Shown: positions 2,801-32,233, counted from the stretch's first letter. The stretch is DNA of 64,000 nt from Clostridia bacterium (GCA_029258515.1 JARHYK010000002.1:167216-231215); one strand, 5' to 3'. Translations and numbers: made by a program. Notes: a model not told the origin generated them from the letters alone.

Positions 2801-4354
2801 ATGGAAAAAATAAAAATAAAGAAAACAAATGGTATTACTTTAATTGCATTAGTAATTACAATAATAGTTTTATTAATCTTAGCAGGTGTAACAATAGCAA
2901 GTTTAAGTGGAGATAATGGAATACTTCAAAGAGCAAGTGAAGCAAAGAAAAAAACTAACAAAGAAGATGCAGAAGAATCAATAAAATTACTATTAACAGA
3001 AGTTCAAATGGAGAAAAATTTAGGAACAAAACCATTAAAAGATTTGTTAGAAGAAAAATTTGGACAAAGTAATGTAAAGCCAAATGGAGATGGATTTAAA
3101 GTAATAAAAGATGGTTATGAAGCAACAATTGATGCTAATGGTAATTTAGTAGGAGAAGTAGTAAAAGTAGGAACAGGGGGAGAAATACCAATACCACCAA
3201 CAACAGGTAAAACAGATGGGAGTTGGGATGCAACAAAAGGTGTAAATTCACCTAAATTAAAAGATAATATGAAATTAGTAACATACAGCAATGGAAATTG
3301 GGTAGAAGATACAACTAATTTAGCTTATAAATATGTTGCAGGAACAGGAAATGAAGACAATATTTCAAGTGAATGGGCAAATGCTGTTTTAGATGGAAAT
3401 TATTATGTATGGATACCGAGGTATGCGTATAAAATAGATAATAGTGTAACATATACAAGTCAAGCAGGTACAAGTCATAAAATAGATGTTAAATTTGTTG
3501 ACAATAGTGTAAAAGGAACAACAAGTGATGGGTATATAGTACATCCCGCATTTACATTTGGAACAGAAGAGCTAAGTGGAATATGGGTAGGAAAATATGA
3601 AACAAGTAGAAGTGATGCAACAGAAACTCAAGAAGGAACAGCTATAACAGTAAAAATACAACCAAATGTTAGAAGTTATAGAAATATAACTGTATCAACA
3701 ATGTTTGAAGCAGCTAAAAGTTTAAGTAAGCCAAATGTAGATGCTCATATGATGAAAAATACAGAATGGGGAGCAGTAGCATATTTGGCACAAAGTCCAT
3801 ATGGAAGAAATGGAACAGAAGTAAGTGTGAATCAATGTAGTGATTATATAACAGGAGCAGGAAAGACTAAAGGAATAAATAAAATTTATGAAAGTACAAC
3901 TTATTCACAAGCAGACATAGAACCAGAACAAAAATATGATGGAGCTATAGGTAAAATGTCAAGTACAACAGGAAATGTATATGGAGTATATGATATGTCG
4001 GGTGGAGCATTGGAGTATGTAATGGGGGTATATGGAACAGGAAATCCATTAAAACCATCAATTGGCAGTTCTTCAGGATTTGATATTAATAAATTCCCAG
4101 AAAGTAAGCATTATGATGTATATGAAAATAAAACAAATGATTATGGAAATTATGAAGGTGGTAAAGATGGTGATGCAACTAAGGAAATTCAAAATTGGAA
4201 TAATGATTTTGCTTACTTTGTGAATTCTGACCATCCGTTTTTCTTACGAGGAGGTAGATATAATAATTCTGGCAATTCAGGTTTGCTTTGCTTTACCTGG
4301 GGTAATGGTAATGCTTACGGTGATCTCGGTTTTCGTCTTTGCCTTGTGGTATAG
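2801..4354 (+). CDS. type IV prepilin-like N-terminus fused to an FGE-sulfatase/C-type-lectin-fold domain protein; candidate DGR target
   Basis: Short basic leader ending in G (MEKIKIKKTNG), then a hydrophobic helix ITLIALVITIIVLLILAGV. FGE-sulfatase domain motifs TEWGAVAY, GVYDMSGGALEYV and RGG...GFRLC are present. The C-terminal 35 codons are A-depleted and Asn/Ser/Gly/Tyr-rich. Confidence 0.75.
   Translation: MEKIKIKKTNGITLIALVITIIVLLILAGVTIASLSGDNGILQRASEAKKKTNKEDAEESIKLLLTEVQMEKNLGTKPLKDLLEEKFGQSNVKPNGDGFKVIKDGYEATIDANGNLVGEVVKVGTGGEIPIPPTTGKTDGSWDATKGVNSPKLKDNMKLVTYSNGNWVEDTTNLAYKYVAGTGNEDNISSEWANAVLDGNYYVWIPRYAYKIDNSVTYTSQAGTSHKIDVKFVDNSVKGTTSDGYIVHPAFTFGTEELSGIWVGKYETSRSDATETQEGTAITVKIQPNVRSYRNITVSTMFEAAKSLSKPNVDAHMMKNTEWGAVAYLAQSPYGRNGTEVSVNQCSDYITGAGKTKGINKIYESTTYSQADIEPEQKYDGAIGKMSSTTGNVYGVYDMSGGALEYVMGVYGTGNPLKPSIGSSSGFDINKFPESKHYDVYENKTNDYGNYEGGKDGDATKEIQNWNNDFAYFVNSDHPFFLRGGRYNNSGNSGLLCFTWGNGNAYGDLGFRLCLVV
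2828..4010 (+). repeat. dispersed repeat copy A (paralogous to 30761..31900; about 95% identical over the first ~780 nt, patchy thereafter)
   Basis: By-eye nucleotide alignment of the two pilin/FGE genes. Identity begins exactly at the codons for NGITLIAL. Confidence 0.8.
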
Positions 4355-4715
4355 AAATGTGAATTTTGTAATTTGTAATGTGCATAATTTAATAAAATGT
4401 TAAATCTCTTATATAGTAGATATTATTGTGATATAAAATTGCAAAGATACTATATAGGAGTTTTTTATGATTGACAAAAGTTGTTAGTAAAGTTGTAAGA
4501 AAATATGTAAGTGAGAGTTTTAAATATTATACGAAAGATAGATATTATCTAAAGATATTAAATGTGATAAGATATAATTAAATAGACAAGCTAAAAAAAG
4601 AAAAGAAGATTACAGAAATTATTAAGTGATAAGAATTTTAAAAAATAATGACAAAAGATTAAAATATACTTGAAAAATAAAAAAAAGTGTGTTAATATAT
4701 AAAAGAATTGTTGAT

Positions 4716-4790
4716 AGGGGTATAGTGTCAATGGTAGCACATCGGTCTCCAAAACCGCCTGTGAGGGTTCGAATCCTTCTACCCCTGCCA
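4716..4790 (+). tRNA. tRNA-Trp (anticodon CCA)
   Basis: A cloverleaf can be folded by hand. Acceptor stem AGGGGTA/TACCCCT, anticodon loop CTCCAAA, T-loop TTCGAAT and a 3' CCA. Confidence 0.85.
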
Positions 4791-10573: not shown

Positions 10574-11008
10574 ATGGAAAAAGTAACAATATATACAGAT
10601 GGTGCATGTTCAGGAAATCCAGGCCCTGGAGGTTGGGGTGCAATTTTGATGTATGGCGAAAATAAAAAGGAAATATCAGGAGGAAAAAATGATACAACAA
10701 ATAATGTAATGGAACTAACTGCAGCTTTGGAAGCATTAAAATTATTAAAATATGCTTGTGAAGTGGAACTATATAGTGATAGTGCATATTTGGTTAATGG
10801 TTTTGATAAAGGGTGGATATATGGCTGGAAGAAAAATAATTGGAAAACTTCTAGTAAAGAACCAGTTAAAAATAAAGAAATATGGGAAGAAATATATGAT
10901 TTAACAAAATTTCATAAAGTAAAATTTATAAAAGTTAAAGGCCATAGTGATAATGAGTATAATAATAGATGTGATGAATTAGCAAGAAATGCTATAAAGA
11001 AATTATAA
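10574..11008 (+). CDS. rnhA: ribonuclease HI
   Basis: [16 protein letters not shown] motif and overall RNase H fold. Confidence 0.85.
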
Positions 11009-11028: not shown

Positions 11029-11820
11029 ATGGAGACATTTGCACAATATATATTAAATGAAAAAGCCTTGGGGTCTAAAATGGAAATAGTATATTATTTA
11101 GCTAAAAAGGAGAAAATATTTTTTGATAAATCTGTTATATTTAAAACAGAACTTTTAAGAATGTTTTTAAATAATTTGGAGTTAGGATTAGATAAAAATA
11201 TATTGTTAACTGCAAATTTATTAGCAAGTTGTAAAAAAATAGAAGTATCTGATGATTTAGAAAAAATTAAAGCTTTTTCAAAAGTAGGAGCAGAATATTT
11301 ATATAGTATAGGATTTGATGAGAAATTTTGTAAAATATGTGAAGGGATAAATAGATATACAAAGCAAGAAAAGAGGGAAAAAGAGAGCGATGTTTTAGAA
11401 TTAATTGATCAATTTGGTGGAATGATATTAGATAGACCAGAAAGAATAGGAATGAAGCCAGATGAAGCTTTAGTTATATTAGAACATAGAAATTTAAAAG
11501 GTCAATTTAATAGATATTTACAATCGTTTATTGATTTTATAAATGAGATAGAACAAATAACTATAAAACAAGATAGGGAAAGAACACCTATTGAATTATT
11601 GTTAAAACTATATAAAGAAACAGCTAATGAGAAAAGATATATTACAGCTGTTATTTACGAATATGAGCAGTTGGTTGATGAAGCTTTTTGTAAGGCAAGA
11701 GAGGGAAAAAATTGTGAAATTAGAAAAAATATGCTAGAATTAGAAAAAGGAAATCCAAATAGGTCATTATTTAGTGAAGAAACAACACAAAAAATAATAG
11801 GAAAATTGATAGAGAAGTAG
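11029..11820 (+). CDS. hypothetical protein
   Basis: 263 aa ORF tightly spaced before the EndoQ-like gene. No family recognised. Confidence 0.4.
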   Translation: METFAQYILNEKALGSKMEIVYYLAKKEKIFFDKSVIFKTELLRMFLNNLELGLDKNILLTANLLASCKKIEVSDDLEKIKAFSKVGAEYLYSIGFDEKFCKICEGINRYTKQEKREKESDVLELIDQFGGMILDRPERIGMKPDEALVILEHRNLKGQFNRYLQSFIDFINEIEQITIKQDRERTPIELLLKLYKETANEKRYITAVIYEYEQLVDEAFCKAREGKNCEIRKNMLELEKGNPNRSLFSEETTQKIIGKLIEK

Positions 11821-11837
11821 AGAAGGAAGGTAGATAA

Positions 11838-13025
11838 ATGTACGAAATATTTGCAGATTTACATGTTCACATTGGGAGGTCAGAAAGTGGTAAACCAATT
11901 AAAATAACTGCCGCTAGATCTTTGAATTTTGCGAATATAGCAAAGGAATGTGAAGCTAGAAAAGGAATACAAGTTGTAGGAGTTATTGATTGTGCGTCAC
12001 CATATGTAATAGAAGATATCGAAAAATTTTTAAGTAATGGCGATGCTTATGAGCTAAAAGATGGTGGAATAATATATAAAGATAAGGTTTGTATATTATT
12101 GGGAAGTGAAGTAGAAACATCAGAAAAAGGAAGAAATGGAAAGAGTGGTAGTGCTCACAATATTTGTTTTTTTCCGTATTTGGAAGATATAAAAGGTTTT
12201 TCAAAAGAGATGAGTACACATATAAAAAACATAACATTAAGTACTCAAAGGTCAAATGTTTCTGGATATGAATTAATAGATATAGTAGAAAAATATAATG
12301 GTATTTTGATTCCAGCACATGTTTTTACACCACATAAGAGTTATTATGGAAATTGTGTAGATAGTTTAAAAGAAATTTTCAGGGAAAAATATGATAAAGT
12401 ATTTGCAATAGAATTAGGATTAAGTTCAGATACTATGTTAGCAGATATGATATCAGAATTGGAAAATAAGACATTTTTGACAAATTCTGATGCTCATTCT
12501 CTTCCTAAAATTGCAAGAGAATATACTAAGATGTTAGTAGAAGATATATCATTTAAAGAAGTTGTAAAAGCTTTAAAAAATGAAGATGGAAGAAGAATTA
12601 TTGCTAATTATGGGTTAGATCCAAAACTTGGAAAATATCATAGGACATATTGTGATAATTGTGAAAAAACTATAGAAACTAAAGAACCAGTTAATAAATG
12701 TCCTTATTGTGGAAGTGAAAAGGTTACTTTTGGTGTTTTTGATAGGATAGAATTAATAAAAGATAAAAAAGAAAGTAAAAGTCCTAAAGATAGACCACAA
12801 TATATTTATCAAGTACCACTTGGATTTATTCCAGGTGTAGGAGGAAAAACTATTGAAAAATTATTAGATACTTTTGAAACCGAAATGAATATTTTACATA
12901 AGCTTTCAAAAGATGATATTGAAGCTGTGGTTGGAGAAAAAATTGCAAATAAGATTGATGAAGCAAGAAGAGGTAAATCAAAAGTTCATTCTGGTGGTGG
13001 AGGAAACTACGGAAAAATAGAATAG
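11838..13025 (+). CDS. PHP-domain protein, endonuclease Q-like (TIGR00375 family)
   Basis: N-terminal ADLHVHIGRS metal-binding motif of PHP domains. C-terminal zinc finger CDNCEK...CPYCG as in EndoQ. Confidence 0.5.
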   Translation: MYEIFADLHVHIGRSESGKPIKITAARSLNFANIAKECEARKGIQVVGVIDCASPYVIEDIEKFLSNGDAYELKDGGIIYKDKVCILLGSEVETSEKGRNGKSGSAHNICFFPYLEDIKGFSKEMSTHIKNITLSTQRSNVSGYELIDIVEKYNGILIPAHVFTPHKSYYGNCVDSLKEIFREKYDKVFAIELGLSSDTMLADMISELENKTFLTNSDAHSLPKIAREYTKMLVEDISFKEVVKALKNEDGRRIIANYGLDPKLGKYHRTYCDNCEKTIETKEPVNKCPYCGSEKVTFGVFDRIELIKDKKESKSPKDRPQYIYQVPLGFIPGVGGKTIEKLLDTFETEMNILHKLSKDDIEAVVGEKIANKIDEARRGKSKVHSGGGGNYGKIE

Positions 13026-30733: not shown

Positions 30734-32233
30734 GTGAAAAAATCTAAAGAAAGAAACACAAATGGTATTACTTTAATTGCATTAGTAATTACAATAATAG
30801 TTTTATTAATCTTAGCAGGTGTAACAATAGCAAGTTTAAGTGGAGAAAATGGGATACTTCAAAAAGCAAGTGAAGCAAAGGAAAAAACTAATAAAGAAGA
30901 TGCAGAAGAATCAATAAAATTACTAGTAACAGAAGTTCAAATGGAGAAAAATCTAGGAACAAAACCATTAAAAGATTTGTTAGAAGAAAAATTTGGACAA
31001 AGTAATGTAAAGCCAAATGGAGATGGATTTAAAGTAATAAAAGATGGTTATGAAGCAACAATTGATGCTAATGGCAATTTAGTAGGAGAAGTGGAAAAAG
31101 TAGGAACAGGGGGAGAAATACCAACAACTGGTAAAACAGATGGAAGTTGGGATGAAACAAAAGGTGTAAATGTACCTAAACTAAAAGATAATATGAAATT
31201 AGTAATATATAGTAATGGAAATTGGGTAGAAGATACAACAAATTCAGCTTATAAATATGTTGCAGGAACAGGGAATGAAGATAATAATTCAAGTGAATGG
31301 GCAAATGCTGTTTTAGATGGAAATTATTATGTATGGATACCAAGGTATGCGTATAAAATAGATAATAGTGTAACATATACAAGTCAGGCAGGTACGAGTC
31401 ATAAAATAGATGTTAAATTTGTTGACACTAGTGTAAAAGGAACAACAAGTGATGGGTATATAGTACATCCCGCATTTACATTTGGAACAGAAGAGCTAAG
31501 TGGAATATGGGTAGGAAAATACGAAACGTCAGGTGATATTGCAAAACCAACAATAAAACCTGATCAAGTAGCATTAACAGATATTAATGTTGCAACGATG
31601 TTTGGAACAGCTAAAAAATTAAGTAAAATAAATATAGATGCTCATATGATGAAAAATACAGAATGGGGAGCAGTAGCATATTTGACACAAAGTTCATATG
31701 GGAGAAATGGAACAGAAGTAAGTGTGAATCAGTGTAGTAATTATATAACAGGTGCAGGGAGAGGAATTGGTAATCCAATAGATAATCCAATTTATAATGG
31801 AATATATTCAAATCCAGAACTTAATCAAAAATATAATGGAGCAATAGGACGATTATCAAGTACAACAGGAAATGTATATGGGGTATATGATATGTCTGGA
31901 GGAACAGTTGAATATGTGATGGGAGTATATGGGACAGATAAAAATAATATAAGTTTTAGGTATTCTGGTTTTGATATCAATTCTTTTCCAAAAGAAGAAA
32001 AATATTATGATTTGTATACTAAAACAAGTACAGATATAACTAATATTGGTGATAGTTTGTTTGAAACATCTGGTTGGAATAATGATAATAAATCTTTTTT
32101 TAATCTCGACTTTCCTTTTTCTAGACGTGGTGGTCGTTATAATTCTTCTAGTGATGCCGGTATTTTTTATCATAATCCTTACAATGGTGCCAATGATAGT
32201 TCGTACGGTTTTCGAGTGTGTCTTTCAGTATGA
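30734..32233 (+). CDS. type IV prepilin-like N-terminus fused to an FGE-sulfatase/C-type-lectin-fold domain protein (paralog of 2801..4354); candidate DGR target
   Basis: GTG start with an AAGGAGG RBS. Leader MKKSKERNTNG followed by ITLIALVITIIVLLILAGV. The FGE motifs are conserved. The divergent C-terminal 36 codons are A-depleted and Asn/Ser/Tyr/Asp/Gly-rich. Confidence 0.75.
   Translation: MKKSKERNTNGITLIALVITIIVLLILAGVTIASLSGENGILQKASEAKEKTNKEDAEESIKLLVTEVQMEKNLGTKPLKDLLEEKFGQSNVKPNGDGFKVIKDGYEATIDANGNLVGEVEKVGTGGEIPTTGKTDGSWDETKGVNVPKLKDNMKLVIYSNGNWVEDTTNSAYKYVAGTGNEDNNSSEWANAVLDGNYYVWIPRYAYKIDNSVTYTSQAGTSHKIDVKFVDTSVKGTTSDGYIVHPAFTFGTEELSGIWVGKYETSGDIAKPTIKPDQVALTDINVATMFGTAKKLSKINIDAHMMKNTEWGAVAYLTQSSYGRNGTEVSVNQCSNYITGAGRGIGNPIDNPIYNGIYSNPELNQKYNGAIGRLSSTTGNVYGVYDMSGGTVEYVMGVYGTDKNNISFRYSGFDINSFPKEEKYYDLYTKTSTDITNIGDSLFETSGWNNDNKSFFNLDFPFSRRGGRYNSSSDAGIFYHNPYNGANDSSYGFRVCLSV
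30761..31900 (+). repeat. dispersed repeat copy B (paralogous to 2828..4010)
   Basis: By-eye alignment with copy A. Contains a 6-codon indel (PIPPTT vs PTT) and scattered substitutions. Confidence 0.8.

Follow-up and report, generated by a model that had tools for sequence, protein, structure and literature searches.

Can a variable region of a diversity-generating retroelement (DGR) be recognised where neither a template repeat nor a reverse transcriptase (RT) lies nearby? A DGR copies the transcript of its template repeat with an error-prone RT that errs at adenines only, and the resulting cDNA is written over the variable region of a target gene. No other prokaryotic system for targeted hypermutation of proteins is known, and the targets of DGRs point to the surfaces on which microbes adapt most rapidly. 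The question is raised by a gene, here called gene 1, in a stretch of 64,000 nucleotides from a Clostridia bacterium (GCA_029258515.1 JARHYK010000002.1:167216-231215; hereafter ‘the window’). Its product has a prepilin-like N-terminus and a C-terminal domain resembling C-type lectins and formylglycine-generating enzymes (FGE), and an earlier reading of the DNA by itself (the sequence-only reading) had proposed that the 3' end of the gene is a DGR variable region. We found that the positional homology and the codon imprint behind this proposal hold, both for gene 1 and for a paralog in the same window (gene 2), and that the cognate template repeat and RT are not found in the window and its flanks. 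We are fairly confident that a DGR wrote the tail of gene 1, either at present or in the recent past; the tail is best recorded as a ‘DGR-type variable region, cognate DGR not located’ and not as a demonstrated DGR.

The tails of the two genes stand apart from the other coding sequence of the window in their base composition. Positions 4247-4354 contain 19.4% A, 38% T, 27.8% G and 14.8% C in a gene that is 42% A overall, while in-frame windows of 108 nt average 43.5% A (standard deviation 5.9; 14,101 windows from 40 open reading frames, ORFs); the 0.07% of windows that are as A-poor all fall within the gene 1 or the gene 2 tail. Such an end might arise with no DGR at all, from the amino-acid content of a lectin fold combined with a local codon constraint (mRNA 3'-end structure, translation kinetics, or gene conversion from a GC-richer paralog), and amino-acid content alone does lower the expected A from ~43% to ~30%. 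We scored the tails with a codon-conditioned z, in which each residue draws a synonymous codon according to codon usage in the window and the expected number of A is compared with the observed one. The last 35 codons of gene 1 hold 20 A where 31.6 ± 2.3 are expected (z = -5.1) and those of gene 2 hold 21 where 32.9 are expected (z = -5.35); over the last 50 codons the scores are -5.55 and -5.84, respectively, whereas the remaining 35-codon blocks of both genes score from -2.6 to +2.4. The A-depleted, T-rich end described by the sequence-only reading is therefore real beyond its amino-acid content and stronger than that reading made it, and a deficit of ~5 standard deviations that survives this conditioning, confined to the stretch homologous to verified variable regions, argues against composition and local constraint as its source. 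The reading had put the feature at 36 codons beginning at 4247; the deficit is indeed there, but it starts earlier, with the best change point 50-65 codons before the stop (~4157-4202) and a variable-region equivalent of ~50 codons (4202-4351). The gene 1 body (2801-4150) is for its part more A-rich than the codon usage of the window predicts (z = +5.3; 74% A at four-fold third positions), so that the switch at the tail is even sharper.

The codons themselves show where the adenines are missing. In its last 50 codons gene 1 encodes Gly by one GGA, six GGT and one GGC, Arg by CGA, AGA and CGT, and Leu by TTA, TTG, three CTT and CTC, against a background of 61% GGA, 81% AGA and 65% TTA, which bears out the claim that the invariant residues use A-free codons that are rare elsewhere in the window. 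Four-fold third positions carry A at 4/24 sites in the tail versus 135/182 elsewhere in the gene (Fisher p = 7e-8). Codons of the form NNY (Y, a pyrimidine) make up 39/50 of the gene 1 tail versus 37% elsewhere (p = 3e-8) and 43/50 of the gene 2 tail, and NNC codons account for 18% of the gene 1 tail versus 2% of the rest of the gene. We propose that gene 1 is a DGR target with its variable region at 4202-4351, and that its C-type-lectin/FGE-type domain would present the variable residues as a putative ligand-binding site. Constant residues would then need A-free template codons and would be written GGT/GGC, CGT and CTT/CTC/TTG in place of GGA, AGA and TTA, while variable residues would descend from template AAY codons and appear as NNY; the A-free scaffold and the NNY sites observed in the tail would both follow because the RT alters adenines only.

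Relatives of gene 1 with verified DGRs allow this proposal to be set against known variable regions. The protein P0015 (locus L001) is a full-length homolog, 52% identical to gene 1, with a template repeat, bAvd and RVT_1 directly downstream of its gene; P0122 (locus L002), 93% identical to P0015, has an identical layout. At L001 the template repeat (11697-11846) and the variable region, which is the last 150 nt of the gene (11399-11548), differ by 24 mismatches, 22 of them at template A. Other cis pairs of template repeat and variable region occur at L011, L032, L045, L083 and L084, and bAvd and an RT usually adjoin the pair in the ~52%-identical relatives (L001, L002, L032, L045, L011, L083). 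The translated L001 template repeat aligns without gaps to 4202-4351 (52% identity) and to 32081-32230 in gene 2. At its 15 AAY codons, gene 1 has NNY at 13 and gene 2 at 14, and the two genes agree with each other at 4/15 of these sites versus 19/35 elsewhere; the scaffold GF-R-x-C-L is coded GGT TTT CGT ... TGY CTT in the L001 template and in both window genes. This coincidence of the sites that vary between gene 1 and gene 2 with AAY sites of a verified template, filled with NNY codons, is a second point against a non-DGR origin. The L001 template is not gene 1's own, because just 24 of the 59 mismatches between them lie at template adenines. What the data show is that the tail is homologous to verified variable regions, lies in a domain of the expected fold and bears the codon signature; that a template repeat wrote it is what we infer. 

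As a separate observation on such cassettes, an ORF of 125-147 amino acids (aa) with a MutS_I domain lies just 5' of bAvd and the RT at L083 (2699-3076), L084 (9127-9570), L085 (9206-9628) and L090 (5233-5676); it may correspond to the ‘MutS-like’ accessory gene of DGR surveys. L085 has no pair of template repeat and variable region within 10 kb on either side.

Is the codon signature a property of variable regions, or of every gene with this domain? We surveyed 66 tails of the family, taking the codon usage of the respective locus as the reference for each, and obtained z-scores from -8.9 to +1.1 (median -2.2; 36% below -3). The four scorable verified variable regions fell between -4.2 and -6.0, and gene 1 and gene 2 scored -5.2 and -5.5 in the same survey. 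Many paralogs from equally AT-rich genomes have z near 0, and the signature is therefore not generic to the domain. The sequence-only reading had named, as grounds for abandoning it, A-depletion and rare-codon use no greater than in other FGE tails from AT-rich genomes; with gene 1 at -5.2 and many paralogs near 0, the opposite was found. Raw A content, on the other hand, is non-discriminating, as family tails average 23% A versus 40% for gene bodies (n = 89); these family-wide A-poor tails, together with the lack of any template repeat for gene 1 in the window and its flanks, also speak for a non-DGR origin. Against that origin stand the same-fold paralogs near 0, and we consider it very improbable. 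The codon signature goes with variable regions and not with the fold.

A number of results nonetheless weigh against the proposal, above all against a DGR that is still at work on gene 1, and we gather them here. The DNA searched for a cassette comprised the window and its flanks, L086-L089 (8.5 kb upstream and 9 kb downstream), which are Logan contigs of SRR14857245 that are 100% identical to the window and were retrieved through neighbouring genes. A position-by-position template scan of the window, requiring the same base or an A where the two differ, returned A-rich, low-identity chance matches only, and self-BLAST with an adenine-mismatch filter detected no template repeat in the window. 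A translated search of the window and flanks found just the two tails themselves, and tblastn with the L001 RT and Avd (E <= 1e-3) found nothing in the window, though the same search picked up RTs of 24-26% identity at other loci. The flanks contain no RT, Avd or template repeat, the Pfam gene lists included, and none of the best 120 RT relatives is on a contig of 246,528 bp, the length of the source contig. The sequence-only reading had likewise seen no RT or template repeat in the window, and the nucleotide, translated and tblastn searches agree with it; it erred in reporting no second copy of the ggttttcg type, since GGTTTTCG recurs at 32207-32214, in the paralogous tail of gene 2 and not in a template repeat. 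A degenerate template pattern had 0 matches in genome, metagenome and viral contig collections that lack the source genome, which makes this a near-void test: the variable region itself is unmatched there, so that the source genome is absent and the scans are uninformative. The fixed GGTTTTCG in that pattern was moreover too strict, as the L001 template carries GGATTTCG. 

The two tails add to the difficulty. They differ at 46/105 positions spread across all three codon positions, 17 of them at third positions, and their last 18 nt also differ; because of these third positions and 3' ends one template cannot serve both, so that there must be two templates, or at least one relic. At RGGR, the 5' edge of 4247-4354, gene 1 has the A-containing codons CGA, GGA and AGA (one each) where gene 2 has CGT, GGT and CGT, which could be early decay in gene 1.

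The RTs P0204, P0233, P0243 and P0237 were considered as the RT of the source genome and belong to other MAGs (metagenome-assembled genomes). A single template for both tails was also dismissed; besides the differences just described, it would need many AAA-type codons. The Logan assembly of SRR14857245, the only other one of this organism, breaks off in the repeat that gene 1 and gene 2 have in common, 30 nt into both copies, and therefore gives no second view of the tail.

These results lend weight to the idea that gene 1 is a fossil, that is, that it descends from a DGR target whose cassette of template, Avd and RT was lost, leaving a fixed tail with the old codon imprint. The closest verified relatives have a cassette directly downstream where gene 1 has none in cis, most family loci are likewise without a cis DGR, and the family z-scores form a continuum down to 0, as expected of an imprint that decays after loss; the RGGR codons of gene 1 and the need for two separate templates point the same way. 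On the other hand, both paralogs score like verified active variable regions, and the mutation bias of a ~25% GC genome should erode GGT, CGT, CTT and NNC codons, whereas NNC codons are still as enriched in the tail as reported above. Related MAGs also show apparent remote targeting, described below. We regard the loss of the cassette, which is the main alternative, as possible but doubtful. Our best guess is instead that a DGR would lie elsewhere in the genome and have gene 1 as a remote (trans) target; whether gene 1 is under the action of a DGR at present is, in our judgement, close to an even question. The fuller scenario, in which gene 1 and gene 2 would both be live remote targets, each with its own template, of one or two DGRs tens of kb or further off, we think rather unlikely.

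Possible decay is seen elsewhere in the family: the tails at L005 (stops at 11485 and 11527) and L023 (stops at 11240 and 11315) contain in-frame stops or frame breaks and may be decaying targets, and the member at L005 sits in a circular MAG of 1.57 Mb (OZ007016.1).

Remote targeting has apparent precedents among these relatives. Among 80 genome loci, cis cassettes are present at L011, L032 and L045 only, plus an Avd in L004, and many orphan tails score as strongly as verified variable regions. Two family tails, at L048 (ending at 10969) and L053 (ending at 10963), belong to one MAG (MGG24433) but lie on separate contigs with no RT within 10 kb; from RGG to the stop they differ almost wholly at codon positions 1-2 (TAT/CAT, AGC/AAC, GGT/GAT), and they look like two remote targets of one AAY-rich template. 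When the L054 tail (ending at 11911, from a rabbit-gut MAG) is set against the L011 template repeat (12116-12272, from another MAG), 27/36 mismatches fall at template adenines. Remote DGR targets are acknowledged in the literature, and surveys based on cis cassettes miss them (PMC8144416). With the L048/L053 and L054 tails, targeting from a distance in the gene 1 family appears plausible. L013, tried as a further remote target because it shares its MAG with the L011 template, is a doubtful case, with only 24/37 mismatches at template adenines.

We also considered whether the tails might diverge by recombination between paralogous cassettes and not by retrohoming, with gene 1 and gene 2 swapping segments as in pilin antigenic variation. 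The two proteins are near-identical through their first ~270 residues and have diverged C-terminal halves; in the DNA, the 5' ~1 kb is near-identical (2801-3787 versus 30734-31700, with the last common 31-mers at 3787), and the diverged 3' halves keep islands of identity. This mosaic structure suggests recent gene conversion or domain shuffling, and a comparable hint comes from P0015 and P0122, whose differences are mostly in the tail but include an internal patch outside the variable region. Exchange of this kind leaves the A-free scaffold and the NNY codons unexplained, however, and silent partial copies of the tail, which were looked for, are absent from the window. As the source of the tails we hold it to be very improbable, although recombination may well act on the gene body alongside a DGR.

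The sequence-only reading had remarked on the lack of an initiation-of-mutagenic-homing (IMH)-like GC box or hairpin. That absence stands, but it is not evidence against a DGR, since low-GC verified relatives are also without a GC-rich IMH; in them the homology of template and variable region stops after CTTGCA. No conserved or stable IMH, hairpin or terminator was found 3' of the gene 1 stop, and the failure to find a terminator-like site or strong hairpin there also tells against a non-DGR cause of the codon pattern. The region beyond the stop (4355-4790) consists of an AT-rich non-coding spacer of 360 nt and tRNA-Trp (4716-4790), after which comes glyQS; a template-repeat remnant, a terminator-like site and a stable hairpin were looked for in it and none was detected. 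Right after the stop, the verified targets L001 (11554-11570), L002 and L032 (4343-4356) carry TAATGTGATATCTG, and gene 1 (4352-4363) reads TAGAAATGTGAAT; the part common to gene 1 and L001/L032 is AATGTGA, which at 7 nt is too short to interpret. A further 3' element, GTCTTGCCCNGCGNNTAGCACTT, is common to L011, L013 and L054, and this sub-lineage has a GC-rich IMH-like end, unlike the sub-lineage nearest the window genes.

The features of both genes are collected in Table 1. The window is ~25% GC, its other content is housekeeping genes, and no pilus assembly genes were identified among them.

Table 1. Positions of gene 1, gene 2 and their parts, counted from the first nucleotide of the window.
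Feature	Position	Strand	Description
Gene 1	2801..4354	+	517-aa ORF; prepilin-like N-terminus and C-terminal C-type-lectin/FGE-like domain
Gene 1, N-terminal hydrophobic segment TNGITLIALVITIIVLLILAGVTIAS	2825..2902	+	Resembles a class III (prepilin-type) signal plus alpha-1 helix; +5 is not Glu
Gene 1, C-terminal C-type-lectin/FGE-like domain	3518..4351	+	aa 240-517
Gene 1, variable-region equivalent NDFAYFVNSDHPFFLRGGRYNNSGNSGLLCFTWGNGNAYGDLGFRLCLVV	4202..4351	+	Last 50 codons; ungapped alignment to the L001 template-repeat peptide
Gene 1, stretch singled out by the sequence-only reading	4247..4354	+	RGG...GFRLCLVV and stop codon; 3' two-thirds of the variable-region equivalent
Gene 2	30734..32233	+	Mosaic paralog, 499 aa; 78% aa identity to gene 1
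Gene 2, variable-region equivalent	32081..32230	+	Codon signature as in gene 1, different sequence

Gene 1 belongs to a large family: of 8,000 candidates that were scored, 7,894 have E <= 1e-3, so that the family counts at least this many proteins. It occurs in gut MAGs (human, rabbit, mouse and chicken) that carry the labels uncultured Clostridia, Bacilli, Tenericutes and Clostridium sp., frequently with several paralogs per genome. P0003-P0024 are 51-54% identical to gene 1 across 99-100% of its length, identity to the closest protein apart from the paralog is 54%, and clustering at 90% identity leaves gene 1 by itself. Conserved columns of the family include GITLIALVITIIVLLILA, VWIPRY, HMxKNxEWGAVAYL, GNVYGxYDMSGG and RGG...FR. 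Neither gene 1 nor gene 2 has a Pfam or NCBIfam match above threshold; among 44 aligned family members, weak Pfam matches to FGE-sulfatase (33/44) and N_methyl (31/44) recur. The N-terminal segment is nearly invariant across the family alignment. In gene 1 a long helix is predicted at residues 13-36 and the putative prepilin site reads TNG|ITLIALV, with Ala in place of Glu at +5; profile matches of this N-terminus to pilins in the PDB are weak (E = 0.05-0.3). In our reading the product is a surface protein, probably associated with a pilus. In the full-length AlphaFold2 model the C-terminal 130 residues have a predicted local distance difference test score (pLDDT) of ~30 and are unusable, while a domain-only model (115 sequences) is adequate. 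A phage origin found no support, as tblastn of the C-terminal domain against 50,697 phage records gave no match.

What the locus adds is a family of targets, anchored by a prepilin-like segment, from low-GC gut bacteria about which little is known, and a target that is recognisable without its template or RT, through homology to verified variable regions and an adenine deficit at the level of codons. The codon z-score separated verified variable regions from non-variable paralogs, and could be used to screen for remote or recently orphaned targets. Were both genes live remote targets, they would be typical of a prepilin-anchored lectin adhesin family of gut Clostridia and Bacilli (the family counted above), about a third of which would carry the imprint without an RT within 10 kb; trans-acting diversification of type-IV-pilus-like adhesins by DGRs in Gram-positive gut bacteria would then have largely escaped surveys of cis cassettes, and such targets would be findable from codon statistics alone, with no template repeat needed. 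The biology of gene 1 is otherwise conventional DGR biology, and its mild interest comes from the template-free recognition and from a large family that is mostly without a nearby cassette.

Among known systems, the nearest are L001 (ERZ24773341 BRZ_GB NODE_491) and L002, from MAGs of gut Clostridia, which share with gene 1 the prepilin-like N-terminus, the lectin/FGE-like domain and a variable region in the last ~50 codons that ends in GFR(V/L)CL with A-free CGT, TGY and CTT. They differ in what follows: in L001/L002 a template repeat lies 150 nt 3' of the stop, with bAvd and RVT_1 after it, in place of the spacer, tRNA-Trp and glyQS of gene 1. Likeness to structurally known DGR proteins is more distant. 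TaqVP, the DGR variable protein of Thermus aquaticus (PDB 5VF4), is 17% identical to gene 1 in a match that rests on a model with a pLDDT of 72, lower in the tail; it comes from a thermophile and, unlike gene 1, has no pilin-like N-terminus. TvpA (2Y3C), a Treponema lipoprotein, and Mtd (1YU0), a phage tail-fibre tip, show weak similarity, and their N-terminal domains and biology are unlike those of gene 1. With FGE/SUMF enzymes (Pfam PF03781) gene 1 scores below the Pfam threshold, and an enzymatic role is not implied. Pilin-type domains are listed among rare DGR targets (PMC11661182), and a report on Type V pilus adhesins of Bacteroides (bioRxiv 10.1101/2024.11.15.621889) conveys the same idea, of gut bacteria that use a DGR to diversify the adhesive part of a pilus-associated protein; those adhesins belong to another phylum and to a Type V pilus, as against the type IV/prepilin-like N-terminus of gene 1, and are likened to it by concept and not by sequence. 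All the elements met here, namely a C-terminal variable region in a lectin/FGE domain, AAY templates, Avd with an RT, and remote targets, are established DGR biology.

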